DNA from: a virus
Virus genome (UHGV): UHGV-0021788
Length of the DNA: 64,000 nucleotides
Direction: 5' to 3' (one strand)
The notes beneath the pieces are model-generated. The model searched no databases and was not told the origin of the DNA. It saw nothing but the letters and a program-made list of their open reading frames with translations. A program made the translations under genes and the position numbers. Position 1 is the stretch's first letter. Every line of letters starts with the position of its first letter. Shown here in pieces: positions 11,753 to 29,396 of the stretch.

Positions 11753-13591
11753 ATGAGTAGTTATATAAGTAATTCGTTTTCAGTATCGGTCAATAGACCG
11801 ACTACTGGAACAATTGAACCCGTATCAACCGTTAACATATACAAAAATGAAAAAATGTTACAAGCTGTAAGTGGTACACCAGGAGACGGAGAGTATAAAG
11901 TTACAATAACAAATACAACAAATTGTAGTGCTAGTATAAAATCTGATAATAAAACTATATTATTAAATTCTGTAACAGGAAATAATGGTACAATAGAAAT
12001 ATCAGTAAATATTGAAAATAAAAAAACATATAGTAAAACTATTTCTGTTGCTAATGTTAATGATACATCTGTTTTAAGTAGTAATTTTAGTAGAATTGAA
12101 CAAACTGCTAATAAAATAAGTTGGCTAGTAAAAAGTGGTACTAGTTCAAGTAATATGACATTAACAGATGAAGCACTGGATATTATTTCAAAAAATATTA
12201 ATATTACAGGTACAGTTACTTTTTCTAGTTTAGATAGTTATACTCAAAATAGAATAAATAGTTCATATAATTTGACTTCAGATTGGTCATATGGAGGAAC
12301 AACTACAATTAATGGTGCTAAAATACAAACAGGTACAATAACTGCTGACCAAATAAGTGCTAATGCAATTAAAGGTAAGAATATTACAGGTGGTACAATA
12401 AATATAGGTAGTGGTACATTTGTAGTTAATAAAAATGGTCAAATCATTGCAAGAACAGAACCTAACTCAAAAGGTCAATATTTGGAAATGAATAGTTCAA
12501 GTTATAAAATTTATAATGGTTCTAAAACTGTTGCTATGACTTTAGGATTTAGAGATGTTACATTTGAAAATGGTAATACTTCTACATCAACACCTTGTAT
12601 ATATTTAGGGGCAGATGGTATAAATAATCAAGGTGGTAGTAGTTATACTGCTGGAACAGGTAGATATTTTGGTAGAATAATGGCTACTGATAGTCATACT
12701 TCAATGTCAAATACTCACGTTGGTGTTCCTTTGATGGAAATAAATTTCAACAGTAGATATACAGATTCTGATACAGGAAATGCAATTGCAAGTCAAATGA
12801 GATTTTTTGGTGATGGTGATATGATAATAGCTCCAGTTTGTGACCTTCAAATAAGAACCCATCAAAAAGATAATATGGTATCAAAAGGTGGTTCAGAATA
12901 TGAAGTAGCTTACTTTGCTTCAAGTTCATCTGAATGGTATTCTGGATTTATGAGAACTTATGCTGTGACAAATAATTTCAATAGTAAAGGTTTGTTCTTA
13001 GGAGATTATTATATGAGTTCTTCTGGTAATGGTTATAATTCTAGTCTAGGTGATTTTGTTAGTGCAGTTCTTGTAAAAGCAGGTAAAACAAGTTCAGGAG
13101 ACAAAATGAGAACATTTAGACCTCATACTGACAATGTTGCTTTATTGGGTACTGGTGGTTATAGATGGGCAAAACTTTATTGTGGTAATAGTTCAATAAA
13201 TACTTCCGACAGAAGATGTAAAACAAATATAAATTATCTTACTTCTGATAATGCAAAAGTTGCAAGTAAACCATTATTTAATGAAGATGAAATATGGAAT
13301 TTTGTAAAAGATATTGATTTTGCAACATATAACTTTATAGATAATGAAACAGGAGGAGCAAAAGAAGATAATCAAATAGGATTTATTTTACAAGATTTAA
13401 TTCAAGCTTATCCTGATTTAACCAATTCTTTATTATTGGATAAAGGTAGTTATGATGTAGAAGAAGGCGAAGATGACACAATAGTTCCTATGTTAGGATA
13501 CAATAGTGGAAACTATGTTAATTTATTGGGTTGTGCTTTAAAACAAGCATTACAAAGAATAGAGAAATTAGAAGAACAAATAAATAAATAG
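11753..13591 (+). CDS. Tail fibre with a C-terminal intramolecular chaperone auto-proteolytic domain (peptidase S74-like).
   Basis: C-terminal 'NTSDRRCKTNINYL' matches the Ser-Lys dyad motif (S-D-x-R-x-K) of endosialidase/tail-spike CIMCD domains, followed by a coiled-coil end 'LQRIEKLEEQINK'. Confidence 0.55.
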   Translation: MSSYISNSFSVSVNRPTTGTIEPVSTVNIYKNEKMLQAVSGTPGDGEYKVTITNTTNCSASIKSDNKTILLNSVTGNNGTIEISVNIENKKTYSKTISVANVNDTSVLSSNFSRIEQTANKISWLVKSGTSSSNMTLTDEALDIISKNINITGTVTFSSLDSYTQNRINSSYNLTSDWSYGGTTTINGAKIQTGTITADQISANAIKGKNITGGTINIGSGTFVVNKNGQIIARTEPNSKGQYLEMNSSSYKIYNGSKTVAMTLGFRDVTFENGNTSTSTPCIYLGADGINNQGGSSYTAGTGRYFGRIMATDSHTSMSNTHVGVPLMEINFNSRYTDSDTGNAIASQMRFFGDGDMIIAPVCDLQIRTHQKDNMVSKGGSEYEVAYFASSSSEWYSGFMRTYAVTNNFNSKGLFLGDYYMSSSGNGYNSSLGDFVSAVLVKAGKTSSGDKMRTFRPHTDNVALLGTGGYRWAKLYCGNSSINTSDRRCKTNINYLTSDNAKVASKPLFNEDEIWNFVKDIDFATYNFIDNETGGAKEDNQIGFILQDLIQAYPDLTNSLLLDKGSYDVEEGEDDTIVPMLGYNSGNYVNLLGCALKQALQRIEKLEEQINK

Positions 13592-15749: not shown

Positions 15750-16697
15750 ATGTTATGTTATGTAAAAGATACGGAAAAGTATTATAATTGGAAAAATAGT
15801 ATTTGGTCAGAATTTAGTGGAGGCGGTTCTGGCAATTTACTAATTTATAGAGTTGATAATTTTAACGATATGAATTCTATTAATACAAAAAATCTTGAAT
15901 ATGGAAGTTTATGTCATGTATTAAATGATGAAAACTTAAGATATATGTATTATTATGGTAAAGAGGGTTGGCAATCAATCAGCCATAAATATAAAGTGTG
16001 GATAGGTAAAGAACCACCAAATGATAAAAACTCTCTTTGGGTTGACACAAGAATGATGGAATTAGATTTATCAACAGGTCAAGAATCAAGTATACCTCAA
16101 TCTGTTAAATATTTAATAAATGTAATTAGTAATCTATCTAATGAAATTATCAATCTAACAGCAAAAGTAAACATATTAAATAATGAAATAGAAACTATTA
16201 AAAAGCAAATTGGTAGTGGTGGAATTATTACTGATAATAATATATATCTTACTACTGAAGACGATAAGATTATTACAACAGAAGATGGAATTCCTATTTT
16301 ATATGAAGAAAGTAAAGGTAACAGTGGAGGTTCAGGCGGTGGTACTGGTGGTGAAGATAAACCTCCTATTGATAACAACACCTATATTGTTACTGAAGAT
16401 GATAAAATCATTACTACTGAAGATGGAATTCCTATTTTATATGAAGAAAGTAAAGGTGGTAGTGGAGGAGGAACTACTCCTAGTGTTGATAATAATACTT
16501 ATATTACAACTGAAGATGGTAAAGTTATTACAACAGAAGATGGAAAACTTATATTACATGAACAAAGTAAAGGCAACAGTGGTGGTACTACAGGAGATAC
16601 AGATAAAACAGATAAAAATACTTATATAATTAGTGAAAATGGTAAAATAATAATTACCGAGAATGGTAAAGCTATTATACCAGAAAATAAAAAATAA
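15750..16697 (+). CDS. Tail-fibre-like protein with four PTR-type repeats ('NTYIVTEDDKIITTEDGIPILYEESKG' + Gly-rich linkers). The true start is probably ATG 15598 via a frameshift.
   Basis: Frame open from 15639. No RBS before ATG 15750. Tandem nucleotide repeats at 16230-16620. Confidence 0.5.
   Translation: MLCYVKDTEKYYNWKNSIWSEFSGGGSGNLLIYRVDNFNDMNSINTKNLEYGSLCHVLNDENLRYMYYYGKEGWQSISHKYKVWIGKEPPNDKNSLWVDTRMMELDLSTGQESSIPQSVKYLINVISNLSNEIINLTAKVNILNNEIETIKKQIGSGGIITDNNIYLTTEDDKIITTEDGIPILYEESKGNSGGSGGGTGGEDKPPIDNNTYIVTEDDKIITTEDGIPILYEESKGGSGGGTTPSVDNNTYITTEDGKVITTEDGKLILHEQSKGNSGGTTGDTDKTDKNTYIISENGKIIITENGKAIIPENKK
16253..16451 (+). repeat. Near-perfect direct tandem repeat (~66 nt core repeated with ~133-nt period) encoding PTR repeats.
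   Basis: 'actgaagacgataagattattacaacagaagatggaattcctattttatatgaagaaagtaaaggt' at 16253-16318 recurs at 16386-16451. Confidence 0.7.
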
Positions 16698-16702
16698 AGG
16701 AG

Positions 16703-17989
16703 TTGGATATATTGGAAACTATTAAGAAAAGTGCATTTCAAGAAATTGGTATTCTTAATGATAATGATTATTTTGATATAGTTACTAATACAAATGTTAA
16801 TAGAAGAATTAAATTTTCAGCAATGAAAGAAGCTATAAATAATAGTGTTAATTCTTATGTCGATGTTAAAGCAAAAAATGGAAAAATTTTCAGATTAACT
16901 GTTAATAATGAAGGGGAAATAATTTGTCAAAATGCTGAAGCATATACTGCTACTGCTCCAGAAAAAACTGAAAGTGGTAGATTTGCTGGTTTAATGATAA
17001 ACATGATATATGGTGGTGGAAATAATAAAAATAATACTGCTTGTTCACATCACTTTATAGAATTATATAATCAAAGTACTAGTAGTATGGATTTAAATTT
17101 AAAAGGACTTTATTTATCTGTTAAAAGTAATACAGGTGATTGGCAATCTCTTGCATTAGAGGGTATAATACCTTATCAACATTCATTCCTTGTAAGATGT
17201 AATCAAGTTTCTAATCCTGTACTATTAGGTACTAGATGTAAAATAGATACATATGACCAAGAATGGAATATAGATTTAACTGATGTAGGATTTAGTGCTT
17301 ATTTATCAATAGGAACACCTACAACTGTTAATCCAGCTAATGCAGATGGTAATATGAATAAAGAAGTTGGATATATAGACTTAATGGGTGCTGGTGGAAC
17401 ACAAGAAACACAAGGAGTTAAAGCTTTTGAAACTGCCTATCCAATGTTGATGACTAAAGATATAGGTTGTAGAAGACTTGACTTTGCTGATACAGATAAT
17501 AATCAAAAAAACTGTAGAGCAATAAATTGGAAAACTTGTGATGTAAGTGTCTATAAACCTAGAAGTGTATCAGATGGTAAATGGGACTTATACTTTAACA
17601 AAGCAAAACTAAAATCTACAATGCCTAATCTAATAAATATGTGTTATGGACAAGATGGTTCTAAAACTAGAACATTTACTTTCCAAACTGTATTAACTGA
17701 TGAAGGTTATATTAAATGGAGAAAATACGGAGAATTAAAATGGAATAAAAAACCTACTACTAAAGAAATAATAACTCACTATGATTGTGATGCTACTTTA
17801 CATAGAGTTTTTATTACTGATTTACAACCTGGAATTTATGAATATCAATGTGGTTCTGAAGGTGCATGGAGTGATATAAGTACTTTTGAAGTAAGAAATT
17901 ATGCACAAACTGCTGATAAAAGTAATTTTGTACATAACGATATAAAAATGTTATGGACTACAGACCAACAAGCATGGACTAACATATAG
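16703..17989 (+). CDS. Exon 1 of a split tail-associated LTD-Fn3-metallophosphoesterase (purple-acid-phosphatase-like) gene. TTG start.
   Basis: RBS AAGGAG before TTG 16703. Lamin-tail-domain-like 'HHFIELYNQSTSSMDLNLKGLYLS'. PAP N-terminal Fn3-like 'HRVFITDLQPGIYEYQCGSEGAWSDISTFE'. Motif-1-like 'FVHNDIKM'. The catalytic domain continues only after the downstream intron. Confidence 0.55.
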   Translation: MDILETIKKSAFQEIGILNDNDYFDIVTNTNVNRRIKFSAMKEAINNSVNSYVDVKAKNGKIFRLTVNNEGEIICQNAEAYTATAPEKTESGRFAGLMINMIYGGGNNKNNTACSHHFIELYNQSTSSMDLNLKGLYLSVKSNTGDWQSLALEGIIPYQHSFLVRCNQVSNPVLLGTRCKIDTYDQEWNIDLTDVGFSAYLSIGTPTTVNPANADGNMNKEVGYIDLMGAGGTQETQGVKAFETAYPMLMTKDIGCRRLDFADTDNNQKNCRAINWKTCDVSVYKPRSVSDGKWDLYFNKAKLKSTMPNLINMCYGQDGSKTRTFTFQTVLTDEGYIKWRKYGELKWNKKPTTKEIITHYDCDATLHRVFITDLQPGIYEYQCGSEGAWSDISTFEVRNYAQTADKSNFVHNDIKMLWTTDQQAWTNI

Positions 17990-18194
17990 TCCCTATATTA
18001 AGTGATTAGTATAGTAAATCCTTTGAATTGCTGGTAAATCCTAAAGCCTTATAAACTACAACATGATTAGAAATAATGAGTGTGAATGTTACGAAAGTAG
18101 AAAAAATTATAAGGATAACATATGGTTAAATCCTAAGTGTTATATACAATGGAAGCTCAGCAGGTAAGATTCTAAATTAAATTATTTTAAATAC

Positions 18195-18223
18195 TTGACT
18201 TTTAATAAGATAAATTGTATAAT
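18195..18223 (+). promoter_or_regulatory. Sigma-A-type promoter TTGACT-N17-TATAAT (TG-extended) driving the intron-encoded HEG.
   Basis: TTGACT 18195-18200, TGTATAAT 18216-18223, RBS GTGAGGTGA, ATG 18246. Confidence 0.65.
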
Positions 18224-18245
18224 ATAAGTAAAGTGAGGTGATAAA

Positions 18246-19160
18246 ATGGGAAGAAAGAAAACACATGAGGAATTTATGAAAGAGTTTTATGAAAAAAATC
18301 CTAATGCTAAAAATATAGAAATATTAGGAAAATATGAAGGTAGAAAAGTAAAAATTTTATGTATGTGTAAAATAGATAACTATAAATGGCATACAACTCC
18401 TAATGGATTATTGGGAAGTAAAAATATTAAACCAAATGGATGTCCGAAATGTGCTGGAAAAATAAAAAAAACACATAAACAATTTATAGAAGAAATGAAT
18501 GAAATAAATCCAAATATTAAAATATTGGGGCGTTACATAGATGCTAAAACTAAGATAGAATGTGAATGTAAAATAGATGGATATAAATGGGAAGTTGAAC
18601 CAACTAATTTGCTACAGAAAAGAGGATGTCCAAAATGTGCTAATAAAATACCTAGAGAACATGATGATTTTGTTAAAGAATTAAATAACATCAATCCTAA
18701 TATAAAAATAATAGGTAAATTTATATCTACTAGAACTAAAATAGAATGTGAATGTAAAATAGATGGATATAAATGGGAAGCTGAGCCAAGACATCTTTTA
18801 GGAAATCATGGATGTCCAAAATGTAATGATTCTATTGGAGAAAAAATAACTTATAATATATTAAATAAATTAAATATAAAAAATATAAGACAATACAAAT
18901 TTAAAGATTGTAAATTTTATAAATGTCTTCCTTTTGATTTTTATTTGCCACAATATAATTGTTGTATTGAAATTGATGGTAAGCAACATGAGAATATAGT
19001 CAAATGGTTTGGTGGGTTAGATGGTTTTATAGATAGAAAAATTAGAGATACGGTTAAAGATATATATTGTAAGAATAATGGAATAAAATTAATTAGAATT
19101 ACATATAAAGATATAAATGAAATAGAAAAAATAATTTGTCAAGAACTTAATTTAAATTAA
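18246..19160 (+). CDS. Intron-encoded homing endonuclease: three tandem CxxC...CPKC zinc-ribbon modules plus a C-terminal Vsr-like/DUF559 PD-(D/E)XK nuclease domain (I-Bth0305I-like).
   Basis: Repeats 'CECKIDGYKWE..LL...GCPKC' x3. C-terminal 'FDFYLPQYNCCIEIDGKQHE...IRDTVKDIYCKNNGIKLIRI'. Confidence 0.6.
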   Translation: MGRKKTHEEFMKEFYEKNPNAKNIEILGKYEGRKVKILCMCKIDNYKWHTTPNGLLGSKNIKPNGCPKCAGKIKKTHKQFIEEMNEINPNIKILGRYIDAKTKIECECKIDGYKWEVEPTNLLQKRGCPKCANKIPREHDDFVKELNNINPNIKIIGKFISTRTKIECECKIDGYKWEAEPRHLLGNHGCPKCNDSIGEKITYNILNKLNIKNIRQYKFKDCKFYKCLPFDFYLPQYNCCIEIDGKQHENIVKWFGGLDGFIDRKIRDTVKDIYCKNNGIKLIRITYKDINEIEKIICQELNLN

Positions 19161-19486
19161 TTTAATATGAATAAACTTCAACGACTAAGTATCCTAGTAG
19201 TCTAGGTAGTGGAGGATACCCTTATTGGGTAATGATATAGTCTGCTCTCATGGGAAACCATGAGCAGTTTTTATGTAAAAAAACGGATAGAATAGTAACG
19301 ATATTCTATTGAACATAAGGTGTTGAGGAATCACAAGCTACTAATGTTTGTTTCCAAAATATAAGTGAATGGGAAAAAGGTACTGATTTTGATTTTCATT
19401 TAAATACAGGCGACATTTCGCAAAATGCAAACAGAAGTTTTGAGTGGAGATACCACTATAAATATGCAGATGACCTAATAAGAACT

Positions 19487-20161
19487 ATGTGTCATCAAAT
19501 AACTTGTGGGAATAATGACTTAATAGATAAGAAATATTCAGATGCATTTACATGGTACATGACACCAGAAGATTATTTCTTACCAGACCAAATAGATAGT
19601 GGTTCAGGTGTTATGGTTAATAATCCTAATAAATGTACTTTTAATTCATGTCATAGTTTTGACTTAGGATATGTACATTTTGTTTGTTTAAATAGTAATA
19701 AAGATTATTCTATGTTTAATGAAAATGAAGGTGAAAAAATAGATGATTGGATACAAAGAGAATGTGCATGGTTAGATGCAGATTTAACTAGAGATGAATC
19801 TAATGCTAAAACAAGATGGGTAATATGTTATATGCATTACGCACCTTTTACAGTATCTAGACCTGACTGGATACAAAGATTTGTTCCTGTATTTGAAAAA
19901 CATAGAGTACATTTAGTATTATGTGGTCACAACCATACAAACTCAAGAAGTATTGTAGTTAGAAGTGGTTATGATGGAGACCCAAATAAAGCAAGCTATG
20001 ACCCTAAAGGTCAAAAAACAGCTGAAGAAGAAACAGCTTTAGGACATGGTACTATAAATCATAATGAAGATTTAAAAAATGGTACTCTTTACCTAATGAT
20101 TAATGCAACTGGATTCAAGAATACAGGTAAAGAAAGTATACAAAATCCTTATCCTTGGTAA
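19487..20161 (+). CDS. Exon 2 of the metallophosphoesterase gene. The ORF-track ATG is internal; the exon probably begins ~19320.
   Basis: Frame open upstream to 19299 with no RBS. Upstream in-frame 'GVEESQATNVCFQNISEWEKGTDFDFHLNTGDISQNAN' (PAP GDxxY-like motif). 'ITCGNND' (GNH[DE]-like). 'LVLCGHNH' (GHxH motif). Confidence 0.55.
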   Translation: MCHQITCGNNDLIDKKYSDAFTWYMTPEDYFLPDQIDSGSGVMVNNPNKCTFNSCHSFDLGYVHFVCLNSNKDYSMFNENEGEKIDDWIQRECAWLDADLTRDESNAKTRWVICYMHYAPFTVSRPDWIQRFVPVFEKHRVHLVLCGHNHTNSRSIVVRSGYDGDPNKASYDPKGQKTAEEETALGHGTINHNEDLKNGTLYLMINATGFKNTGKESIQNPYPW

Positions 20162-20332
20162 AAAAATATTGCCACTTTACATAGTAATATGTAATGACAA
20201 ACTCATTGAATTGCTGGGACGACCTTAGAGCCTTAATGCCACAATATAAGAGAAATCATTATATGAAGGTTTAAAAAGTTTAAGGATTGGTTAATCAGCA
20301 GGTAAGATTCTAAATTAAATTATTTTAAATAC

Positions 20333-20361
20333 TTGACTTTTAATAAGATAAATTGTATAAT
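20333..20361 (+). promoter_or_regulatory. Duplicate of the intron HEG promoter (TTGACT-N17-TATAAT).
   Basis: ~184-bp block 20296-20479 is ~97% identical to 18157-18340 (promoter, RBS, first ~30 codons). Confidence 0.6.
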
Positions 20362-20375
20362 ATAAGTAGAGTGAG

Positions 20376-21299
20376 GTGATAAATATGGGTAAAAAGAAAA
20401 CACATGAGGAATTTATGAAAGAGTTTTATGAAAAAAATCCTAATGCTAAAAATATAGAAATATTAGGAAAATATGAAGGAAACAATAAACCTATTAAATG
20501 TCGTTGCAGAATAGATGAATACGAATGGTATCCAAGACCTTGTCATTTATTGGGAAATAAAAATGCTAAACCTACTGGTTGTCCTAAGTGTAGTGGAAAA
20601 GCAAAAAGAACAAATGAAGAGTTTATTAAGGAAATATATATAATAAACCCTAATATAGAAATACTTAGTGAATATAGTGGAGTTAGTAATTTAATAGATT
20701 GTCGTTGTAAAATAGATGATTATGAGTGGTCATCAATTGCTGATAATTTATTACATGGACATGGTTGTCCTAAATGTGGAGGACAAATAAAAAAGGAACA
20801 TGAAGAGTTTGTAAAAGAAATGGAAGAAATAAATCCCAATATAGAAATACTTGGGGAATACAATGGAGTTCATGAATATATTTTATGTGGATGTAAAATA
20901 TGTAATCATGAATGGACAACTCGTCCTCATGAATTATTAAATGAATACGGATGTCCTTCTTGTAATATATCTCGAGGAGAATTTAAAATAAAAACTTTAT
21001 TAGAAAAATATCAAAAACAATATAAATATCAATATAAATTTAAAGATTGTAAATTTTATAATGAATTACCTTTTGATTTTTATTTACCTGATTATAATAT
21101 TGCAATAGAATATGATGGAGAACAGCATTATAAAATAATTAAACAATTTGGTGGAATAAATAGATTAATAGATAGTAAAATAAGGGATACTGTTAAAACT
21201 GAATATTGTAAAAATAATAACATAAAACTTATAAGAATACCTTATTGGAATTATAAAGATATAGAAAATATACTTATAAAAGAACTTAATTTAAAATAA
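20376..21299 (+). CDS. Intron-encoded homing endonuclease, paralogue of 18246..19160 (Zn-ribbon repeats + Vsr-like/DUF559 domain). The real start is probably ATG 20385.
   Basis: 'ELPFDFYLPDYNIAIEYDGEQHYK...IRDTVKTEYCKNNNIKLIRIPY'. N-terminal 30 aa identical to HEG 18246. Confidence 0.6.
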   Translation: MINMGKKKTHEEFMKEFYEKNPNAKNIEILGKYEGNNKPIKCRCRIDEYEWYPRPCHLLGNKNAKPTGCPKCSGKAKRTNEEFIKEIYIINPNIEILSEYSGVSNLIDCRCKIDDYEWSSIADNLLHGHGCPKCGGQIKKEHEEFVKEMEEINPNIEILGEYNGVHEYILCGCKICNHEWTTRPHELLNEYGCPSCNISRGEFKIKTLLEKYQKQYKYQYKFKDCKFYNELPFDFYLPDYNIAIEYDGEQHYKIIKQFGGINRLIDSKIRDTVKTEYCKNNNIKLIRIPYWNYKDIENILIKELNLK

Positions 21300-21477
21300 T
21301 TTAACATGAATAAACTTCAACGACTATCCTGTAATGGAGTAGGGTTCAAGCGAACTCGAAGTAGTGAGCATCTTAATAAAGATGAAGATATAGTCTAGTC
21401 TCATGGGAAACCATGAGCAGTTTTTGTGCGTAAAAACAAAACGGGTTAGGTGTAGCGAACCTAATTGAATATAACGG

Positions 21478-21691
21478 GTATGGATTAAGAACTTCACATC
21501 CAACACAACCAACTTATGCAACATTAACTATAGGTTGGGATAAGATAGAATATAAATGCTATAAGATAATGAACACATTAAGTAAAGATAGAAACGGAAA
21601 TACAATAGTAGTGCCTTATGGTAGTCAAACTAAAGAATTGTATGATAGTTGTACTCTTAATTGGAGAGCAAAAGGTCAAACACTAATATAG
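21478..21691 (+). CDS. Exon 3 (C-terminal ~70 aa) of the metallophosphoesterase gene.
   Basis: Frame open after TAA ~21446. 'NGYGLRTSHPTQPTYATLTIGWDKIEYKCYKI...NWRAKGQTLI*' resembles the PAP C-terminal beta-strand region. Stop TAG 21689-21691. Confidence 0.45.
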
Positions 21692-21704
21692 GTGGTGATA
21701 GTTT

Positions 21705-24380
21705 ATGCCTAATAGAATTTGGAGTGAAGAAAAAAAAGATTGGATAATAGTCGATGAAACAAATTTAGCTACAAATATAGAAGTAATGGATATCAAAGAG
21801 TACTATCATAAAAAGAAAACAGAAGAAGAAACAAAAGATGATGAATTTTTAAGTGTTGAAAAATGCTTAGAACAAATAGGGGATAAAATAAATAATGGTG
21901 ATATAGGTGCTATAGGTGAAATAAAAGATAAAGTACAAGATTTGGATGACAGAGTAACCTATATTGAAGAAAACGGTGGTGGTGGAGGAGGTGGCTCTTC
22001 CATGCCTACCGTTAAACTTCTTAGTGATAGTTATTATGCTATACCAACCGATGGAGAATTAAATATTTATTATAACTTTACTTCTCCAAATATAGGATTT
22101 GGTACAGCATTTATAAGTTTAGACTATGGAACAGCTGAACAGTTATCAGTTGCACAAGGTCGTAATTTTTATACTGTAAAAAACTTAGAAAAAGGTGAAC
22201 ATAGACTAGATATATATGTAACTGATATAACAGGTTTATTCTCGAATACAGTTACAGTAACAATAGTTGTTGGTGGACTTGAATTAACTTCTAATTTTGA
22301 CGATAGTACGGATTTATCCTTAGAGGATTATATTAGAATAAGATATGTTATCTCAACAATATCTTCTAAGCCAATTGAAGTGTCTATTGAAATAGATGGT
22401 AAACTAACAAAAGCAGAAGGTATAATTGGTCAAAATATATTGGAAGTTGGACAGTTTAGTTCATTAGGGGTTCATACAGTTAAAATATCAGCCGTCAGTG
22501 GTGATTTAGTATCAAACCAATTAGTATTTAATTTAGTTGTAGCCGATTCAGAAAATCTTTATGTATCTACTACTTTTCCTGATAATTATACTATACAAGT
22601 AGGTAAAAACCTACAAATTGATTATAGAAATAGTATGGTAAATCAAAATAGATTTATTACTCATATGCTTATAAATGGTACTGAAGTAGATACGGTAACA
22701 TCTTATTCAGGATATAACTATTGGAACGTTGGGTCTAATTTAGAGATAGGTTTATATACTTTAACATTATATTCTACTACATCCGATGGTGCATATACAT
22801 CAAATTATTTAACATGGGTAATAGATGTTGTTTCAGAAGACTATGTTCCCTTTAAGGTTGTAACAGATGGGTTATTATGTAATTTTGATGCTAATGGTAA
22901 TCAACAAACATCTTCTAGTAGAAACATATGGAAAGACGATAGTGGAAACGACGTTAAATGTGAATTGTTTAATTTCAACTATTCTACAAATGGTTGGATA
23001 GATAACAGTTTAGTATTTAATGGTAAAACATATGCTAAAATAGATTTTTCTCCTTTTAGTGATAATATCAAAAATGGTATGACAATTGATATGTTATTTA
23101 AAGTAAAAAATGTTGGTGATATAGACGGAAAAGTATTATGGTGTAAAAATCCAATTACACCTTACCAAGGTTTTTATATAAATACTTATGAGGCAAATTG
23201 TCGTTCTGCCAACTCAAGAATAGTTAGTAACCAATTTCAAGATGACACATGGACTAGAATAACATGGGTTATTAATAGAGAAGATTTGACAATGATAGCT
23301 TATGTAAATGGTATCATAACGAAACCTGTATATATAACAGATACAGAAAACTTTAGAATGGAAAAAGATATTTATCTAGGTGTATCATTTGACGAAGTAG
23401 ATAACAATTTAGATAATGATGGTAATCCAATACCTCACTATGCATCTTGTTCTATAAAAACATTTAGAATATATGATAGAGCATTAACTGATGAAGAAAT
23501 ATTACAAAATCATATTGCCGATATAAAAGATAAAGAAAAACAATTGGAAATAAGAGAAAAGAACTATGGTGATAGTACAATGCCTATCATAAAATTTGAA
23601 GGTAATGTAGAAGGTATGGATGGTAGTATCTATAAATTATTAACAATAGATTATAATGACCCATTAGACCCATCTAAACGTTTTAGACAAGAACAATGTA
23701 GAGTAAAATGGCAAGGTACTTCTTCACTAGAATATCCAGTAAAAAACTATACAATAGAACTTAGAAGTGGTGGTAACGTTTGGGAATATGCTCCTAAAGA
23801 CAATTGGCTACCAGAAAAAAGATATACTTTGAAGGCTTCGTTTATGGATAGTTCTACATATAATAACGTTGGTTCTTCTAAATTAATTTATGATTACTTT
23901 AGAAAATCTAATATGTTTTATCCACAAGAAATTAAAAATCCTAAAACTAGAGCAGTAATAGATGGTTTCCCAGTTAGACTTTATATTAATGGGGAATCAA
24001 AAGGTATATATATGTTCAATATAGATAGATATGCTGAAAACAATTATGGATTTTCTGGGGAATCATCAATTGTATCTTATGAAATAGCTGTCAACTCTGA
24101 AAGTGGTGCTGGTGCTTTCGCATCAGATGCTTGGTCAAGTATACGTTCTGAATTTGAAATGAGATATCATTATGCTGGAGATGAAAGTGTTGTATGTGAA
24201 ACTGTTATGGAAAATGGTGTACCAACTACTGTTTTAAAAGCAGGTTTTCATTCAGAATTACAAAATTTAGTTTCATGGGTATTAAATTCTACTATAGAAG
24301 AGTTTAGAAGTGAATTAAAAGAACATTTTGAATTAAACTTTTTAATAGATTATTATCTATGGGTTCTATGTTTGGGTTAA
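21705..24380 (+). CDS. Exon 1 (891 codons) of a giant CotH-kinase-like / BspA-LRR tail protein. The ORF-track stop at 24378-80 lies in the intron; the exon probably ends at 24377.
   Basis: RBS GGTGGTGATAG. CotH-family region 'MPIIKFEGNVEG...KRYTLKASFMDSSTYNNVGSSKLIYDYF...GFPVRLYINGESKGIYMFNIDRYAENNYGF' ending '..NFLIDYYLWVLCLG'. Confidence 0.55.
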   Translation: MPNRIWSEEKKDWIIVDETNLATNIEVMDIKEYYHKKKTEEETKDDEFLSVEKCLEQIGDKINNGDIGAIGEIKDKVQDLDDRVTYIEENGGGGGGGSSMPTVKLLSDSYYAIPTDGELNIYYNFTSPNIGFGTAFISLDYGTAEQLSVAQGRNFYTVKNLEKGEHRLDIYVTDITGLFSNTVTVTIVVGGLELTSNFDDSTDLSLEDYIRIRYVISTISSKPIEVSIEIDGKLTKAEGIIGQNILEVGQFSSLGVHTVKISAVSGDLVSNQLVFNLVVADSENLYVSTTFPDNYTIQVGKNLQIDYRNSMVNQNRFITHMLINGTEVDTVTSYSGYNYWNVGSNLEIGLYTLTLYSTTSDGAYTSNYLTWVIDVVSEDYVPFKVVTDGLLCNFDANGNQQTSSSRNIWKDDSGNDVKCELFNFNYSTNGWIDNSLVFNGKTYAKIDFSPFSDNIKNGMTIDMLFKVKNVGDIDGKVLWCKNPITPYQGFYINTYEANCRSANSRIVSNQFQDDTWTRITWVINREDLTMIAYVNGIITKPVYITDTENFRMEKDIYLGVSFDEVDNNLDNDGNPIPHYASCSIKTFRIYDRALTDEEILQNHIADIKDKEKQLEIREKNYGDSTMPIIKFEGNVEGMDGSIYKLLTIDYNDPLDPSKRFRQEQCRVKWQGTSSLEYPVKNYTIELRSGGNVWEYAPKDNWLPEKRYTLKASFMDSSTYNNVGSSKLIYDYFRKSNMFYPQEIKNPKTRAVIDGFPVRLYINGESKGIYMFNIDRYAENNYGFSGESSIVSYEIAVNSESGAGAFASDAWSSIRSEFEMRYHYAGDESVVCETVMENGVPTTVLKAGFHSELQNLVSWVLNSTIEEFRSELKEHFELNFLIDYYLWVLCLG

Positions 24381-24469
24381 TACAATGGCTCAAGTAAAAC
24401 TTTCTCTGATTAATGGCGAACACCCTAGTAGAAAAGGGCAACGCTCAAGAAGATTTATTTAACAATATT

Positions 24470-24498
24470 TTGACTTTTAATAAAATAAGTAGTATAAT
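24470..24498 (+). promoter_or_regulatory. Sigma-A-type promoter TTGACT-N17-TATAAT for the GIY-YIG HEG.
   Basis: TTGACT 24470-75, TATAAT 24493-98, RBS AAAGGGGTGA, ATG 24520. Confidence 0.6.
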
Positions 24499-24519
24499 AT
24501 AAATGAAAGGGGTGATACT

Positions 24520-25230
24520 ATGAGTGAAAATAAATATTATGTTTATGAATGGATTAGATTAGACACAAATGAACCATTTTATGTAGGTAAAGGTTGTGGA
24601 GATAGATGGAGGAATTTATATAGGGATTACAATCCTCGTTTTATGAATATAATAAATAAAGTACCAGTAGCAGTATCAATATTAATAAATAATTTAACAG
24701 AAAAGGAATCTTTTGATTTTGAATGTTATTATATATGGTTATATAAAGATATTATAGGATATGATATATGCAATATAAATGAAGGTGGGGAAGGTCAAAG
24801 TTTATGTGGTGAAGCTAATGGTTTTTATGGTAAACATCATTCAGAAGAAACTAAAAAATTATTAAGTGAACAACATAAAGGCATGACTTATTCTCAAGAG
24901 ACAAAAAATAAATTGAGTGCTATGAGAAAAGGTGAAGGGAACGCTATGTGGGGACGTAGAGGAGAATTATCTCCGCATTGGGGTAAAAAATATTCAGAAG
25001 AAAGAAAAAATAATATTAGTAAAGCAATGGGTACTTCTGTAAAGTGTATTGAATTAAATATAGAATTTAATAGTCTTAATAAAGCAGAAAAATATATGAT
25101 TAAAGAATATGATATTAAATTTTCTCATAAAACTTTAAAAGCTACGATAGAAAAAAGAAGAAAAAAAGATTGGTATGGAGAAATAGAAATTAATGGAGAA
25201 TTAATTAAACTTCATTGGGAATATTGTTAA
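24520..25230 (+). CDS. GIY-YIG homing endonuclease with NUMOD3-like repeats (I-TevI-like), intron-encoded.
   Basis: 'KYYVYEWIRLDTNEPFYVGKGCGDRWRNLY' (GIY...YIG...R). Repeats 'GKHHSEETKKLLSEQHKGMTYSQETKNKLSAMRKGEGN'. Confidence 0.75.
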   Translation: MSENKYYVYEWIRLDTNEPFYVGKGCGDRWRNLYRDYNPRFMNIINKVPVAVSILINNLTEKESFDFECYYIWLYKDIIGYDICNINEGGEGQSLCGEANGFYGKHHSEETKKLLSEQHKGMTYSQETKNKLSAMRKGEGNAMWGRRGELSPHWGKKYSEERKNNISKAMGTSVKCIELNIEFNSLNKAEKYMIKEYDIKFSHKTLKATIEKRRKKDWYGEIEINGELIKLHWEYC

Positions 25231-25428
25231 ATAAAATCACTTGCAACGACTGAGTGAGAAAGGCTTAAAGATTAATTCTTTAAGTAAGCAACAGTCTGAA
25301 CTTGCGAATATAATTTCTACAAAAAACAAATCGCAGAAGAGGGGTCATCGGTAATCAGACCGATTAAAGAAGAACCCCTCTCGCCAACTTAGGTTGGTCA
25401 GTAGCCGAAAGGTGAAAGTAACAGAATG

Positions 25429-25446
25429 CTAGTAGACAACTTGGGT
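25429..25446 (+). CDS. Putative 18-nt micro-exon 2 of the CotH/LRR gene (LVDNLG).
   Basis: Sits between the 3' end of intron a (...ACAGAATG) and a second td-like 5' splice context 'CTTGGGT|TTAATGATTTTGGCTCAAG'. Keeps the reading frame. Confidence 0.4.
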
Positions 25447-25693
25447 TTAATGATTTTGGCTCAAGTATAAAATTCTCTCTGATTAATGGCGAACACCCTA
25501 GTAGAAAAGGGCAACGCTCAGGAAGATTTATAAAATCACCTGCAACGACTGAGTGAGAGAACACTTATTTAAGTGAAGCAACAGTCTGAACTGCAAATAT
25601 AATTTCTACAATAACAAATTGCAGAAGGAAGTTGAAGTGCTTCCTCGCCAACTCAAGTTGGTCAGTAACCGAAAGGTGAAAGTAACAGAATTG
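25447..25693 (+). mobile_element. ORF-less group I intron 'b' (247 nt). It is intron a without the HEG cassette.
   Basis: 5' region near-identical to 24381-24460 (IGS GCTCAAG, 'CTCTGATTAATGGCGAACACCCTAGTAGAAAAGGGCAACGCTCA'). R 'CTGCAACGACTGAG' 25530-43. S 'CAACAGTCTGAAC' 25577-89. 3' '..AGTAACAGAATTG'. Confidence 0.6.
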
Positions 25694-25786
25694 AAAAATA
25701 TGGTTTTAACAACTTTCGGTATGAATGCTGAAGGTAACGTAATTTGGTATCCATCCTTTGACATAGGAGGATGTAAAACTCTCTTT
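25694..25786 (+). CDS. Putative 93-nt exon 3 of the CotH/LRR gene (KNMVLTTFGMNAEGNVIWYPSFDIGGCKTLF).
   Basis: In-frame with exons 1/2 and 4. Contains a CotH-family 'N..L....G.W..IPWDLD..G'-like motif (NVIWYPSFDIGG). Confidence 0.45.
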
Positions 25787-26003
25787 AATTGACTTGGAAG
25801 TCCTGAAGAGGACGACAGGGGGCAAGTTTAAATACAGCCTGAACGACTAAACAAGAGAGCATTATCATATTGATAATGATGTGATAGTCTGAACTCTAGT
25901 AATAACTTGTTTTAATGAAACTAGAGAAGGAAATCCGAAGTGTTTTCCTCGCCATAAAATATTATGGTCAGTAGCTTAGGAATAAGTGAAAGTAACAGAA
26001 TGG
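25787..26003 (+). mobile_element. Compact ORF-less group I intron 'c' (217 nt).
   Basis: Begins 'TAATTGACTTGG' (cf. td 'UAAUUGAGG'). IGS 'GAAGAG' pairs with exon 'CUCUUU'. R 'CCTGAACGACTAAAC' 25836-50. S 'GTGATAGTCTGAAC' 25890-903. 3' end '..GTGAAAGTAACAGAATGG' as in introns a and b. Confidence 0.55.
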
Positions 26004-29000
26004 TATGATGCAGACTCAGAGTTGGGTTTAACCAACGATGGTGAGTTAAGATACGGTTCAGGTATCGACACTTTAACAGATAATTTCAATACTTCTGATT
26101 CTAAATTATGGACTAAATTACTAGAAGCTTTCCCAGATGAAGTACAAGCAAGATATATCTATATGAGAAGTAATGGATTTATGACTTATGAAAATATTAT
26201 AAAATATTATGAAAATATAGCAGATACAATTGGTCAAACATTCTATAATGAAGATGCAAGACTTAAATATATTAATGAAGATAATAAATCATTTATTTAT
26301 ATGTGTAATGGTTCAAGACTTGAACATACAAAAAGATGGTTAAGCGAACGTATTGTATATATGGATAGTAAATTTAACTATGGTGATTTCTTATTATCTT
26401 CTACTATACGTTCAAATGTTTCCGGTGAGGTATCATTAAAAGTAAAAACATATTCACCTCAATGGGTAGAAATATCTTTCTCAGATAGTGCTACAGGTAC
26501 AACAAGACAATGGTGTAGTAAAGATAAATGGTATACATTTATAAATACCATTGAAAATGCCGTCGACAACAATATCACCATTAGAGGTGTAACTAATATA
26601 ATGTATTTACAAGGATTAGAAAATTTAAATGTATCTTCTTTACTTGTATCAAATGCAAAAGGTTTATGTGAAATTGATATTCATGGTTCTAAACGTATTC
26701 AAAGATTGGAACTAGGTAACAATATCATGTTACAAAAACTTAATTGTAAAGATTGTATTAATTTAGGTATTGATGATAACTATAAAGTTGTTAACTTGGA
26801 AAAATGTATCAACTTAAAATATCTTGATTTATCTAATACTATGATAGGTACACTTCAATTAAATAAAGATGGTGGTGCATTAGAATATTTAGATTTATCT
26901 GAAACAGAATTAACTTATTTAACTTGTAACCATCAAGAATATTTACCTGAAATAAAATTAGATGGTTGTAAAAATCTATCATCTGTTACTATTAATGGTT
27001 GTAATGCATTAACAAGATTGAGTTTACCTAATACTAAATTAGCTGAATTTACTGTAACAGATTGTAATAGTTTAAATTACCTTGATATATCATATACTGG
27101 TTATTTAGTAAAATTAGATTTAACAGGTTGTAGTAGTTTAACTACTTTAATAATGTCAGGTATAGCAAATAATAAATTTACTGAATTAGATGCGAGAACA
27201 TTAACAAAATTAACAACATTAGATGTGTCTAAATGTTATTTCTTAAATAATATAAGATTTGCTAATGGATATAATGCTTTAACATCTGTAAACTTCCAAC
27301 AAAGTGGGATTAAGACTTTACAGTTTGGAAATAATGAAAAACCTCCTTATTTAGATTTATCTCCATTTAATTTAACAGAAGTTAATTTCTATAACTGTAC
27401 TGAAATAGAATATATTAAAAATATAAAATTATATGCTACAAAATCCATAGAACCTTTTTATAATTGTGTTAATTTACACACTATAGAAGGTACTATAAGT
27501 TTAACTGATGATTTAGGAAGAAGTTTTTATAATTGTAAAAAACTAGTTAATTTACCTACTTTAGATTTAAGTAGAGTTAAAACAGCTTCGGATTCCTTTA
27601 TGCATTGTGAGTCTTTAACTTATGACCAATTACTAGAAATTTTAGGTAAGATGAATAATTGTCAAAGTTTTTATAGAACTTTCCAAAACTGTTTAGCTAT
27701 GGAACATGACGGTTGGGAAAAAGCTTTATTCGATAAGATACCAAAAGCAACTTATTTTTATTGGACATTCTCAGATACTCCAATAAGCGGACAATTAGAG
27801 CAAGGAATCTTTGATAGTTTATTAGATTTACAAACTGTAGATGGATTATTTAGCGGTGGTAAGGCAAAAGGTTATATTCCAGCCAATCTATTCAAATATA
27901 ATACAAAATTACAAAATCTTTGGAATCTATTTAATGGATGTAAAGAATTAGAAACTGCTACTAATATAGTAAACATGTTTACCACTACAGTAGATTTAAG
28001 AGGTATAGAGGGATTATTTAGTGGTTGTACTAATGCTTTTATGAAACTAAGTGATACATGGTTTGCAAATTGTCCAGAGCTACAAAATATGGATTATGCT
28101 TTTGCAAATTGTACAAACTTAATTGGTTCTATAGCTGAAAATCCTCATATGATAAAAAATAAATCTAAATTAACAACAGCAGAACATACCTTCCTTAATT
28201 GTACAGGCATAAGTGGTGATTTACCTGATGATTATTTTGTTGGGTGTACTGCTTTACAAGAAATACAAGGACATTTTCAAGGATGTACTGGTCTAACAGG
28301 AACTCCTAAAACTGAATCATGGATAGATTGTGAAAATATAACTAATGCTTCATATTTATATGCAGGATGTACTGGTTTAGGTGGTATAGCAGGTGCTACT
28401 CAAGAAATACCTAAAGATTTCTATAAAAGAAAATATAGACTTATAGATATATCTGGTATGTGGCAAGGTTGTAATCAACTACAATTTTCTCTAATGCCAT
28501 TAAAAGAAGATAAGTTAGGTGAGGATGGAGCTGTTATAGAAAAAGGGGACGACCCTTGGTTTGTTGATTGTAGACAGTTAGCGAAAATAAATTATCTATT
28601 TGATGGTTGTAGTAATTTATCATCTGTAATACCTTCTAGGTTATTTGAAGTTTGGGATGAAAAAGGCGAAGTAATGGATACACTTATAACAGAAGCTAAA
28701 GCGGTATTTAAAAATTGTCAATTACTTACAGATGAAATACCAGAAAATCTATTTGAAAAATTTATTAAAGTTAGAGATTTAACTGAATTTTTCTATCAAT
28801 GTAGAAGTTTAACTGGTGGTATTCCTGATACATTATTTTCTAATTGTTATTCTTTAGTTTATGCTAATAGAATGTTTATGCGTTGTGGTAAATTAGGAAA
28901 ATATGCAGACCAAGTAACAGAAGAAGAGCCATATTTCTGTAATGAAGAACTATTTTGGAACTGTCCTAACCTATTGGAAATATCTCAATTATTCCATATG

Positions 29001-29396
29001 TATGATGGATGGGGAACTTCTCTAAGAGGAGACATACCTCCATTGTTATTTAGAGCTAATCCTAAATTACAAAATATAAATAATGCCTTTGCTGGTTGTA
29101 GTCTTTTAACTGGTGGGTTGGATGGGCAACTATTTGTTAGAAATGCTAAATTAAAAACTGCTAGAGAAACTTTCCACGGTTGCTCAGGTTTAAATGGAGA
29201 AATGAGTGGAGCGTTATTTACCTCTACTAATAATCCACTTTTAACAGATTTCTATCAAACCTTTCAAAATTGTAAAAATATACAAGGTACTGCACCTTCA
29301 TTATGGACACAATTCTCTAATGCAAATGGTGGAGGATGTTTTAATGGATGTACTAAATTAAGTAATTATGCAGATATACCTTCACAATGGAAATAA
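25986..29396 (+). CDS. Exon 4 of the CotH/LRR gene (true exon start ~26004): BspA-type leucine-rich repeats (LRR_5) and Cys-containing repeats. The GTG 'start' of the ORF track is intron sequence.
   Basis: 'gtgaaagtaacag' before nt 26004 is present in all three intron 3' ends. 'LDLSNTMIGTLQLN', repeated 'F.NC..L' BspA-type LRRs. Terminator after the stop. Confidence 0.55.
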   Translation: MKVTEWYDADSELGLTNDGELRYGSGIDTLTDNFNTSDSKLWTKLLEAFPDEVQARYIYMRSNGFMTYENIIKYYENIADTIGQTFYNEDARLKYINEDNKSFIYMCNGSRLEHTKRWLSERIVYMDSKFNYGDFLLSSTIRSNVSGEVSLKVKTYSPQWVEISFSDSATGTTRQWCSKDKWYTFINTIENAVDNNITIRGVTNIMYLQGLENLNVSSLLVSNAKGLCEIDIHGSKRIQRLELGNNIMLQKLNCKDCINLGIDDNYKVVNLEKCINLKYLDLSNTMIGTLQLNKDGGALEYLDLSETELTYLTCNHQEYLPEIKLDGCKNLSSVTINGCNALTRLSLPNTKLAEFTVTDCNSLNYLDISYTGYLVKLDLTGCSSLTTLIMSGIANNKFTELDARTLTKLTTLDVSKCYFLNNIRFANGYNALTSVNFQQSGIKTLQFGNNEKPPYLDLSPFNLTEVNFYNCTEIEYIKNIKLYATKSIEPFYNCVNLHTIEGTISLTDDLGRSFYNCKKLVNLPTLDLSRVKTASDSFMHCESLTYDQLLEILGKMNNCQSFYRTFQNCLAMEHDGWEKALFDKIPKATYFYWTFSDTPISGQLEQGIFDSLLDLQTVDGLFSGGKAKGYIPANLFKYNTKLQNLWNLFNGCKELETATNIVNMFTTTVDLRGIEGLFSGCTNAFMKLSDTWFANCPELQNMDYAFANCTNLIGSIAENPHMIKNKSKLTTAEHTFLNCTGISGDLPDDYFVGCTALQEIQGHFQGCTGLTGTPKTESWIDCENITNASYLYAGCTGLGGIAGATQEIPKDFYKRKYRLIDISGMWQGCNQLQFSLMPLKEDKLGEDGAVIEKGDDPWFVDCRQLAKINYLFDGCSNLSSVIPSRLFEVWDEKGEVMDTLITEAKAVFKNCQLLTDEIPENLFEKFIKVRDLTEFFYQCRSLTGGIPDTLFSNCYSLVYANRMFMRCGKLGKYADQVTEEEPYFCNEELFWNCPNLLEISQLFHMYDGWGTSLRGDIPPLLFRANPKLQNINNAFAGCSLLTGGLDGQLFVRNAKLKTARETFHGCSGLNGEMSGALFTSTNNPLLTDFYQTFQNCKNIQGTAPSLWTQFSNANGGGCFNGCTKLSNYADIPSQWK

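Follow-up and report, generated by a model that had tools for sequence, protein, structure and literature searches.

A tail-region phosphoesterase gene of an uncultured low-GC phage, very probably invaded by two mobile td-like group I introns

The group I intron of the td gene of phage T4 is of class IA2 and holds the gene for I-TevI in P6a, behind a promoter and a ribosome-binding site of its own; its helices follow the order P1-P2-P3-P4-P5-P6(a)-P7-P7.1-P7.2-P3'-P8-P7'-P9-P9.1-P9.2. Some phage genes harbour groups of related group I introns, only part of them with an endonuclease open reading frame (ORF), which crowd at conserved codons; intron content then varies among close relatives. The gene orf142 of phage Twort reportedly contains three introns. 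Nucleases of the I-Bth0305I/PHROG 559 kind, which have their home in phage group I introns, combine a separate N-terminal DNA-binding region with a C-terminal domain of Vsr fold. In Bastillevirinae, DNA polymerase and terminase genes carry 2-3 introns, and a survey of 2025 described PHROG 559 as a VSR-signature nuclease inside the terminase introns (PMC11878797). A review of 2014 listed EDxHD and PD-(D/E)xK among six homing endonuclease families, found mostly in phage group I introns (PMC3984707). We analysed a stretch of 64,000 nucleotides (nt) of the virus genome UHGV-0021788 (hereafter the window; G+C content 27%), in which a late tail-region gene for a protein of 773 amino acids (aa) is split into three pieces. 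We are highly confident that this gene has been invaded by two mobile td-like group I introns carrying genes for Vsr/EDxHD-like homing endonucleases. An initial annotation of the sequence had proposed the core of this reading, namely one LTD-Fn3-metallophosphoesterase gene in three collinear exons, separated by two group I introns with endonuclease genes in P6a. The proposal was borne out by uninterrupted homologues, intron-less alleles, fold and covariation, and ORF-less relatives of the introns that match the Rfam model RF00028.

The locus resembles T4 td in the order of its helices, in the P6a ORF with its own promoter and ribosome-binding site, and in near-identical R, S and 3' terminal sequences (AACGACUAUCC..., GAUAUAGUCU and GAACAUAAxG); td aligns with the second intron, with the same helices. 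It differs from td in its host gene, a phosphoesterase gene of the late structural region rather than one of nucleotide metabolism, and in its endonucleases, which are Vsr/EDxHD-like rather than GIY-YIG. The first intron differs further: its P5 is extended by about 100 nt, it has only one P7.1-type hairpin, and its 5' splice site lacks the U·G pair. Related introns crowd the region as in other multi-intron phage genes, but here the hosts are tail-region enzymes (the phosphoesterase and an adjacent 2050-aa CotH-domain protein), and exons are as short as 18 nt. We regard the locus as a further case of a well-known kind, which draws extra interest from its host gene, its intron density and its non-canonical splice sites.

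The ORFs 16703..17989 and 19487..20161 and the open frame up to 21691, from which the initial annotation started, are all present as described; the features of the region are compiled in Table 1. The mechanical ORF start, TTG 16703, directly abuts AGGAG. The gene probably starts at TTG 16712, 9 nt after AGGAG (METIKK...), which is also the start called on the related sequences L155 and P0010, and the protein is probably 773 rather than 776 aa long. The spliced coding sequence is open over 773 codons. The exons are free of stops and are broken inside codons (phases 2 and 1), the 5' ends of exons 2 and 3 have neither a start codon nor a ribosome-binding site, and in-frame stops follow within a few codons of each 5' splice site. 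A search with the joined pieces returned more than 400 uninterrupted homologues, the best of which are 772-773 aa long with 78-79% identity at 100% coverage. Exon 3 opens within an invariant P-W-W motif and is collinear with the homologues to their C termini, and the motifs of exon 2 were placed by alignment to uninterrupted homologues.

The four junctions (17979/17980, 19320/19321, 20159/20160 and 21476/21477; a slash marks a junction) were fixed by alleles that lack one or the other intron. The locus L001 (96.5% identity) has no intron 1; its sequence runs GCATGGAC/AGTCGAAG without an insertion and sets the end of exon 1. Intron 2 is lacking in L003 (about 80% identical) and L155 (98.5% identical), which read CCTTATCCTTGGT/GGTATGGATT with the same flanks as the window, so that the exon 3 junction is contiguous in both; the three loci together give the boundaries of exon 2. 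Since L155 and L003 are contiguous with identical flanks at CCTTGGT/GGTATGG, and these flanks permit no sliding, the extent of intron 2 is unambiguous. A T repeated at both ends allows intron 1 to be placed at 17980..19320 or 17981..19321. The former was chosen because the intron is G-terminated only there; sliding by 1 nt would leave a terminal U in the window and, for the intron at this site in L008, a terminal A. The predicted joined exons then read ...GCATGGAC/TGTTGAGG, and the intron-less site occurs in an L001 type (...CAAGCATGGACAGTCGAAG...) and an L155 type (...CCTTATCCTTGGTGGTATGGATT...). Joining 17985 to 19321 (...AWTNIVEES) was ruled out, for 'NI' is absent from all homologues and L001 is contiguous at 17979/19322. 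Other U/G-compatible joins, 17975/19320, 17980/19328 and 17987/19320, were rejected: they lose or gain conserved residues, and the exon identity of L001 extends to 17979. The initial annotation had suggested that the 5' site of intron 1 may lie up to about 45 nt upstream of the TAG at 17987; the L001 allele reduces this distance to 8 nt. Excision at these junctions restores the host frame, as L001, L003 and L155 are contiguous across them.

For the spliced coding sequence, dN/dS came to 0.16 in the comparison with the intron-less L003 and to 0.12 in that with L155 (34.5 synonymous differences, 18.5 non-synonymous). By this measure of divergence the interrupted gene is under purifying selection, and the low ratios, together with exons free of stops, argue indirectly that the introns are removed accurately. 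A megablast search of the region against GenBank phages gave a 160-nt intron-core segment as its sole match, so the GenBank phage collection holds no cultured close relative.

We then examined the inserts as RNA. All the quoted core elements were found in their places, except that Q of intron 1 reads GCTCAGCAGG and not AATCAGCAGG, and the T4 td 3' end quoted for comparison was 100% identical to T4. The terminal G19320 and G21476 align with the td terminus ...GAACAUAAUG. P1 of intron 1 pairs GGACU (17976-17980) with AGUCC (17988-17992), and P1 of intron 2 pairs UGGU (20156-20159) with GCCA and includes a canonical U·G, U20159·G20171. For intron 1, the ORF was cut from P6a and the remainder aligned with 13 relatives; RNAalifold gave P3, P4, P5, an extended P5 arm, P6/P6a, P8 and P9, and the P7 pseudoknot was added by hand. 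The ORF-deleted intron 1 forms 60 of the 60 consensus pairs, P7 included. Across its family, 97.8% of cells were paired, against 32-42% with slid partners, and 40 pairs were compensated. Intron 2 was aligned with nine relatives including T4 td, in a td-type structure of 85 pairs comprising P1, P2, P3, P4, P5, P5a/b, P6, P6a, P7, P7.1, P7.2, P8, P9, P9.1 and P9.2. Here 85.7% of cells were paired, against 36-45% when slid, and 55 pairs were compensated. Compensatory changes back P7.1, P7.2, P9.1 and P9.2 of intron 2, all IA2 features. Intron 1 has a P5 extension of about 100 nt and a single hairpin (CCUAG/CUAGG) in place of P7.1/P7.2. With the ORFs removed, both introns thread onto a td-like P1-P9.2 structure that includes the P7 pseudoknot.

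Profile hidden Markov models (HMMs) built from the family alignments, with every window sequence removed, were searched against both strands of the 64 kb. They matched intron 1 at 18017..18167 (E 6e-34) and 19169..19311 (E 8e-19 to 2e-22), and intron 2 at 20199..20304 (E 3e-21) and 21309..21467 (E 2e-32); in this search no further match appeared beyond introns 1 and 2 and a minus-strand paralogue at 62210..62527, an outcome far outside chance expectation. A CAACGAC at 57822(-), considered as an intron, was matched by no profile and was rejected. The R...S core pattern occurs in more than 120 viral contigs, and many ORF-less relatives were found among these and the protein-derived loci. Judged by sequence and covariation, both inserts are group I introns, intron 2 being td-like (IA2-like) and intron 1 belonging to a sister lineage, 'type A'.

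These data also bear on a different account, in which free-standing endonuclease cassettes or some other insertion fragmented the gene, and its pieces are translated separately or joined as protein in the manner of inteins. Fractured genes with Vsr-like endonucleases are said to have been described, and the endonuclease genes between the pieces do have a promoter and a ribosome-binding site of their own. However, each ORF is flanked by a conserved group I core with covariation, made up of about 200 nt on the upstream side and 160 nt on the downstream side, and ORF-less versions of the same introns occur in the same gene. Exons 2 and 3 lack start codons and ribosome-binding sites at their 5' ends, the breaks fall within codons, and a Pfam scan found no intein motifs at the junctions. 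We consider such fragmentation very improbable.

In both introns the P9 hairpin and the U-rich 5' strand of P9.1 (19247..19274 and 21400..21427) together resemble an intrinsic terminator. This element may attenuate transcripts from the endonuclease promoters, or may be plain ribozyme structure.

The two endonuclease genes encode proteins that are 57% identical over their full length (BLASTP E 1e-118). The ORF list gives GTG 20376 for endonuclease 2, which is probably not its true start; the ATG at 20385 aligns with the start and the Shine-Dalgarno sequence of endonuclease 1. Both ORFs lie in P6a, as had been supposed, and end 15 nt before R instead of about 12. In each protein, three zinc-ribbon/treble-clef repeats (DUF4379/CapR) precede a C-terminal nuclease domain of the Vsr/EDxHD-like kind. 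In endonuclease 1, Pfam identified DUF4379 and CapR, with borderline matches to PvuRts1I-like_N (27 bits) and DUF2726 in the C-terminal domain. PHROG 559 was matched by endonuclease 1 with E 9e-72 and by endonuclease 2 with E 9e-76, and further matches were to PHROGs 9084 ('homing endonuclease') and 7140 ('intron encoded nuclease'). The family has more than 2300 matches, with 2-5 repeats. Searches of PDB sequences by phmmer and by profile gave no significant match, and none to I-Bth0305I or Vsr. The C-terminal domain was modelled with AF2 (pLDDT 91), and Foldseek matched the model to 1cw0_A (Vsr, TM 0.68), 3r3p_B (I-Bth0305I), 1vsr, 3hrl and 4oky (PvuRts1I) with probabilities of 0.98-1.0, although the E-values were weak, about 0.01-0.09 despite a probability of about 1.0; a DUF559-like protein was also among the matches. 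Residues E15, D47, E58, H64, D84 and K87 are invariant in 29 endonuclease homologues. By modelled fold and conserved residues, these are Vsr/EDxHD-like homing endonucleases. They share with I-Bth0305I and the PHROG 559 nucleases the Vsr-fold C-terminal domain with invariant E, D, (E), H, D and K, the separate N-terminal DNA-binding region and the home in phage group I introns; they differ in having no sequence-profile match in PDB and in their N-terminal array of 2-5 zinc-ribbon/treble-clef repeats (DUF4379/CapR).

The initial annotation had called the endonuclease ORFs promoter-driven, and each was found behind a copy of the phage's extended promoter consensus. This 36-nt pattern, TTGACTTTTAATAA-N8-GTATAATATAAGTA, specifies 28 bases and occurs 12 times in the window, where no copy is expected. 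Nine of the 12 copies lie on the minus strand in the block of replication genes (37842, 38675, 42175, 45744, 46012, 52667, 54628, 59620 and 60133). The three on the plus strand (18195, 20333 and 24470) each front an intron ORF, including an unrelated GIY-YIG one. Plain sigma-70 hexamer matches are not enriched in the window (58 found versus 66 expected). Within late genes, the intron endonuclease genes thus appear to be served by a promoter class of the phage itself, probably an early or middle one.

The description of the two introns as paralogous holds for the endonuclease cassette, while the ribozyme cores fall into two sub-lineages. An 82-nt segment of P6 and the 5' untranslated region (UTR) is 97.6% identical between the introns and the endonuclease ORFs are 70.6% identical at the nucleotide level, against 54% for the 5' half and 66.5% for the 3' half of the ribozymes; the cassette, and not the ribozymes, is therefore closely paralogous. 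A repeat as similar as the 82-nt segment could mislead an assembler, and a chimeric joining of repeats during metagenome assembly might in principle have produced the arrangement. The introns are, however, much longer than this repeat, and the unique sequence on either side runs on without a break. Moreover, intron 1 stands in the same place in L155 and L156, which are independent assemblies from other samples (98.5% identity), and in L008. Of the explanations weighed here, an assembly artefact is the least probable, and we give it next to no credence.

Intron content is highly polymorphic across the tail region, in close and distant relatives alike. Introns 1 and 2 occupy the phosphoesterase gene of the window. 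L155 and L156 share intron 1 with the window, are free of intron 2 and have another intron, ORF-less, at TCG/NND (window position 19509/19510; 5826..6138 in L155). L001 lacks intron 1 and carries an ORF-less type-A intron at the G/D codons of motif II. Content thus differs among phages that are 96-98.5% identical over the region. In L008, at about 73% protein identity, an intron is present at the same AWT/V site and the downstream exons are intact. In a census of 113 locus-strands with the gene, 71 gave one near-full-length match, and about 39 insertions were found in about 28 loci, nearly all with the signature AACGAC...AYAGTC. The insertions occupy at least 8 sites across the family, in the numbering of the homologue P0001 near 270, 418/419, 423/424, 453/454, 486/487, about 504, about 609-629 (near GHNH) and 701/702. 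Most are at residues invariant in a 32-sequence alignment (D418, G453-D454, G486-N487-N488-D489 and P700-W701-W702). Introns of relatives interrupt codons of invariant catalytic residues (D418/Q, G453/D, G486/N and the GHNH region), and those of the window lie at T423/V, just after motif I, and within the invariant W701/W. Statements on splice sites are from regex-based counts, and the automatic junction finder was noisy where introns are close together.

According to the scheme we favour, the tail operon would be transcribed through both introns. Each ribozyme would fold and hold the 5' splice site in P1 for attack by an external guanosine. Once freed, the exon would attack after the terminal G (19320 or 21476), joining the three exons in frame. 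This would restore the catalytic domain, to which exon 1 contributes motif I, exon 2 motifs II-V and exon 3 the last strands. The endonucleases would be transcribed separately from their own promoters and, we infer, cut intron-less alleles during co-infection, whereupon repair would copy the intron in. Such homing would account for introns that are present in some and absent from other phages of 96-98% identity, and relatives that differ in intron content alone are ready donor/recipient pairs for homing.

Several points weigh against this interpretation. Splicing of both introns is itself something that we infer from sequence, and the Foldseek E-values of the nuclease domain are weak, at about 0.01-0.02. 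Because the structure of intron 2 was written from its own sequence, its own count of 85/85 pairs is inflated, and covariation in the relatives is the real test. RF00028, run on the whole window in gathering mode and in E-value mode, and also on 17800..21800, matched neither intron 1 nor intron 2. T4 td with the I-TevI ORF in place is likewise missed by this model, an ORF of about 1 kb splitting the core; since this control fails alike, the miss is uninformative rather than negative. The Rfam check proposed in the initial annotation thus gave no direct match to the two introns and succeeded with ORF-less relatives in the same gene family. The homologous phosphoesterase gene of L056 has three ORF-less introns that score 103.9, 91.9 and 67.4 bits against a gathering score of 50 bits, and in nhmmer their halves rank first or nearly so among the matches to the introns of the window. 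The last point is the 5' splice site of intron 1, where the pair at -1 is C17979-G17989 and the nearly universal U·G is missing; with a C-G there, the first step could be slow, protein-dependent or inaccurate.

The same C-G pair, along with the in-frame stops close behind each 5' splice site, would fit group I introns, either intron 1 or both, that no longer splice. The gene would then be a recent pseudogene, or its exon-1 product (LTD and Fn3, ending at TAG 17987) would be made alone. Against this, all core pairs are intact in both introns, and the exons are open in the window and in the roughly 28 interrupted relatives. dN/dS is 0.12-0.16 across the spliced coding sequence, including the comparison between two intron-bearing phages, and the diverged L008 keeps the C-G configuration with intact downstream exons. 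Loss of splicing is accordingly improbable, though the least improbable of the alternatives.

Among type-A introns, a missing U·G was not confined to intron 1. Intron 2 and the motif-III introns have canonical U·G pairs in P1 (UGGU/GCCA and GUGGU/GCCAC). Type-A sites were examined in the window (17976..17992) and in L008, L020, L030, L056, L207, L213, L216, L223, L225 and L226. At TTD/QQ, in at least 8 alleles, type-A introns have a canonical GGAU^ (the caret marks cleavage) with (A/G)GUCC. At AWT/V, in the window and L008, the same guide pairs with GGAC^ to give C-G. At the GD site, in at least 10 alleles, the exon reads GGAG^ and the guide GCUCC, which gives G-C, and a U·G pair stands one position further in. 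Cleavage after that U·G was ruled out, because it breaks the frame or replaces an invariant Asp. The predicted type-A cleavage always falls after the fourth P1 pair (GGAN^). In our scheme, intron 1 would be an apparent ectopic derivative of the commoner intron 15 nt upstream (TTD/QQ, exon ...GGAU^), whose guide AGUCC it would have kept; this guide now pairs with ...GGAC^, with a C-G in place of U·G.

We know of no natural G-C pair at -1 of a group I 5' splice site, and a literature search for natural 5' splice sites of group I introns without U·G found little. As far as it is cited in PMC6468297, work of Hur & Waring 1995 documents C·G at a group I 5' splice site as a rare natural exception. 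The missing U·G therefore does not exclude intron 1 from group I. On the sequence patterns above, we think it possible, at somewhat less than an even chance, that the type-A sub-lineage splices accurately without the U·G wobble. The guide is the same for GGAU^ and GGAC^ and has a compensating change for GGAG^, a pattern that would fit ectopic spread by reverse splicing to look-alikes of 4-5 nt in one gene, with subsequent fixation. If this reading of type A is true, these are natural ribozymes in which the position in the helix, and not the wobble pair, decides where the 5' splice site lies. The non-U·G sites are a natural test set for 5' splice-site choice by group I ribozymes. In other genes, the type-A introns of L030 (about 14030) and L117 (about 11700) have a P1 without any wobble pair.

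Pfam analysis of the spliced protein, as the initial annotation had advised, identified two of the three expected domains above their cut-offs. Pur_ac_phosph_N (PF16656) covers residues 310-396 of piece 1. Metallophos (PF00149) is matched in piece 2 at profile positions 27-190 of 191, and because this match begins at position 27, the start of the domain lies in piece 1. LTD (PF00932) was weak at residues 96-167 of piece 1, with 22-23 bits against a cut-off of 34.3, and some homologues carry PF00932. An AF2 model of the uninterrupted homologue P0001 (pLDDT 83) resembled plant purple acid phosphatases (PAPs) in Foldseek (E 5e-21, TM 0.70 over about 485 columns; structures 1xzw, 2qfp and 1kbp with E 1e-19 to 5e-21) and the globular domain of lamin A/C, 1ifr (probability 1.0, TM 0.65). 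The family profile matches PAP chains in PDB by sequence. PAPs are defined by seven metal ligands in five motifs, GDxG, GDxxY, GNH(D/E), VxxH and GHxH. The corresponding motifs here, TTDQQ, GDISQ, GNND, MHYAPF and GHNH, do not vary within the family. The protein has motifs I, II, IV and V, but the Tyr of GDxxY is Gln (GDISQ) and GNH(D/E) is GNND. The general features of the metallophosphoesterase superfamily are there and the PAP-specific Tyr ligand is not. Because of this replacement and of GNND in motif III, the motifs identify the protein as a PAP-like binuclear metallophosphoesterase and not a purple acid phosphatase. It shares with the PAPs of kidney bean and sweet potato the order of an Fn3-like N-domain and a metallophosphoesterase domain, and motifs I, II, IV and V; it differs from them in GDISQ, GNND, an extra lamin-tail-like domain and an N-terminal region of about 90 aa.

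Homologues in cultured phages are gp352 of Bacillus phage G (35% identical) and proteins of Bacteroides phages and crAss-like phages, annotated as 'phosphatase' or hypothetical. Tail-type proteins are encoded nearby, ORF 149..4009 matching tail-fibre PHROGs and ORF 11753..13591 tail-protein PHROGs. It is a speculation that, as a tail-region enzyme beside the CotH/laminin-G protein, the phosphoesterase degrades phosphodiester-linked wall polymers such as teichoic acids. Gene callers will break the gene and its neighbour up into several truncated 'hypothetical' ORFs and 'HNH endonucleases'; once the introns are recognised, the tail region regains an enzyme of 773 aa and a CotH-domain protein of 2050 aa. 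As the locus shows, group I introns in uncultured low-GC phages are not limited to genes of DNA metabolism but have heavily colonised late genes of host interaction as well.

Table 1. Coordinates of the exons, introns, RNA elements, endonuclease genes and neighbouring features in the window.
Feature	Position	Strand	Remarks
Exon 1	16712(16703)..17979	+	N-terminal region, lamin-tail-like domain, PAP-type Fn3 domain, metallophosphatase motif I (TTDQQ)
Intron 1	17980..19320 (1341 nt)	+	Group I, 'type A' lineage; terminal G 19320
Exon 2	19321..20159	+	Motifs II (GDIS), III (GNND), IV (MHYAPF) and V (GHNH)
Intron 2	20160..21476 (1317 nt)	+	td-like (IA2-like) group I, 'type B' lineage; terminal G 21476
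Exon 3	21477..21691	+	C-terminal beta-strands of the phosphoesterase; stop TAG 21689-21691
P element	18026 and 20209	+	AATTGCTGG
Q element	18158 and 20296	+	CAGCAGG
R element	19176 and 21315	+	CTTCAACGACTA
S element	19234 and 21387	+	GATATAGTCT
P9 hairpin	19247 and 21400	+	CTCATGGGAAACCATGAG
3' ends	19309 (intron 1); 21465 (intron 2)	+	TTGAACATAAGG (intron 1); TTGAATATAACG (intron 2)
Endonuclease 1 promoter	18195..18230	+	Exact copy of TTGACTTTTAATAA-N8-GTATAATATAAGTA; hexamers 11/12
Homing endonuclease gene 1	18246..19160	+	304 aa; P6a loop of intron 1
Endonuclease 2 promoter	20333..20368	+	Identical to the intron 1 promoter
Homing endonuclease gene 2	20385..21299	+	304 aa; P6a loop of intron 2
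CotH/laminin-G-domain protein gene	21705..29396	+	Four exons, three td-like group I introns
Intron 3a	24378..25428	+	GIY-YIG endonuclease ORF 24520..25230
Internal CotH-gene exons	25429..25446 (18 nt); 25694..25758 (65 nt)	+	
Intron 3b	25447..25693	+	ORF-less; RF00028 28.8 bits, E 3e-5
Intron 3c	25759..26002	+	ORF-less; RF00028 23 bits, E 0.0015
Sixth group I intron	about 62169..62515; 3' junction approximate	-	ORF-less; RF00028 match 62210..62527, 65.3 bits, E 2e-16

Six group I introns were counted in the window, and three of these interrupt the gene directly downstream of the phosphoesterase gene. The spliced product of that gene, the CotH-domain protein, has 2050 aa and matches the uninterrupted 2056-aa homologue of L003 residue for residue across the junctions. 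In the CotH gene of L155 a GIY-YIG intron (9790..9953) follows ...SELG, and that of L030 (11493..14030) has three insertions of about 430, 1060 and 1150 nt. The sixth intron was found by a small-region Rfam scan, the whole-window scans having missed it through their speed filters. It joins the ORFs 62513..63865(-) and 60558..62090(-) of a DNA polymerase III alpha-like gene (Pfam DNA_pol3_alpha, finger and HHH_6). Residues from about 125 to 275 of the first of these (62516..63865(-)) gave a weak match to Pfam Intein_splicing (23.7 bits against a cut-off of 35.8; E 5e-5), and the gene may hold an intein besides the intron. Just upstream of the phosphoesterase gene, ORF 15750..16697(+) encodes four tandem repeats of about 40 aa (...YI(V/T)TEDGK(I/V)ITTEDG(I/K)(P/L)IL(Y/H)E(E/Q)SKG(G/N)SGG...). 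This repeat protein had no family match; its L001 version is shorter, at 274 aa versus 315 aa.

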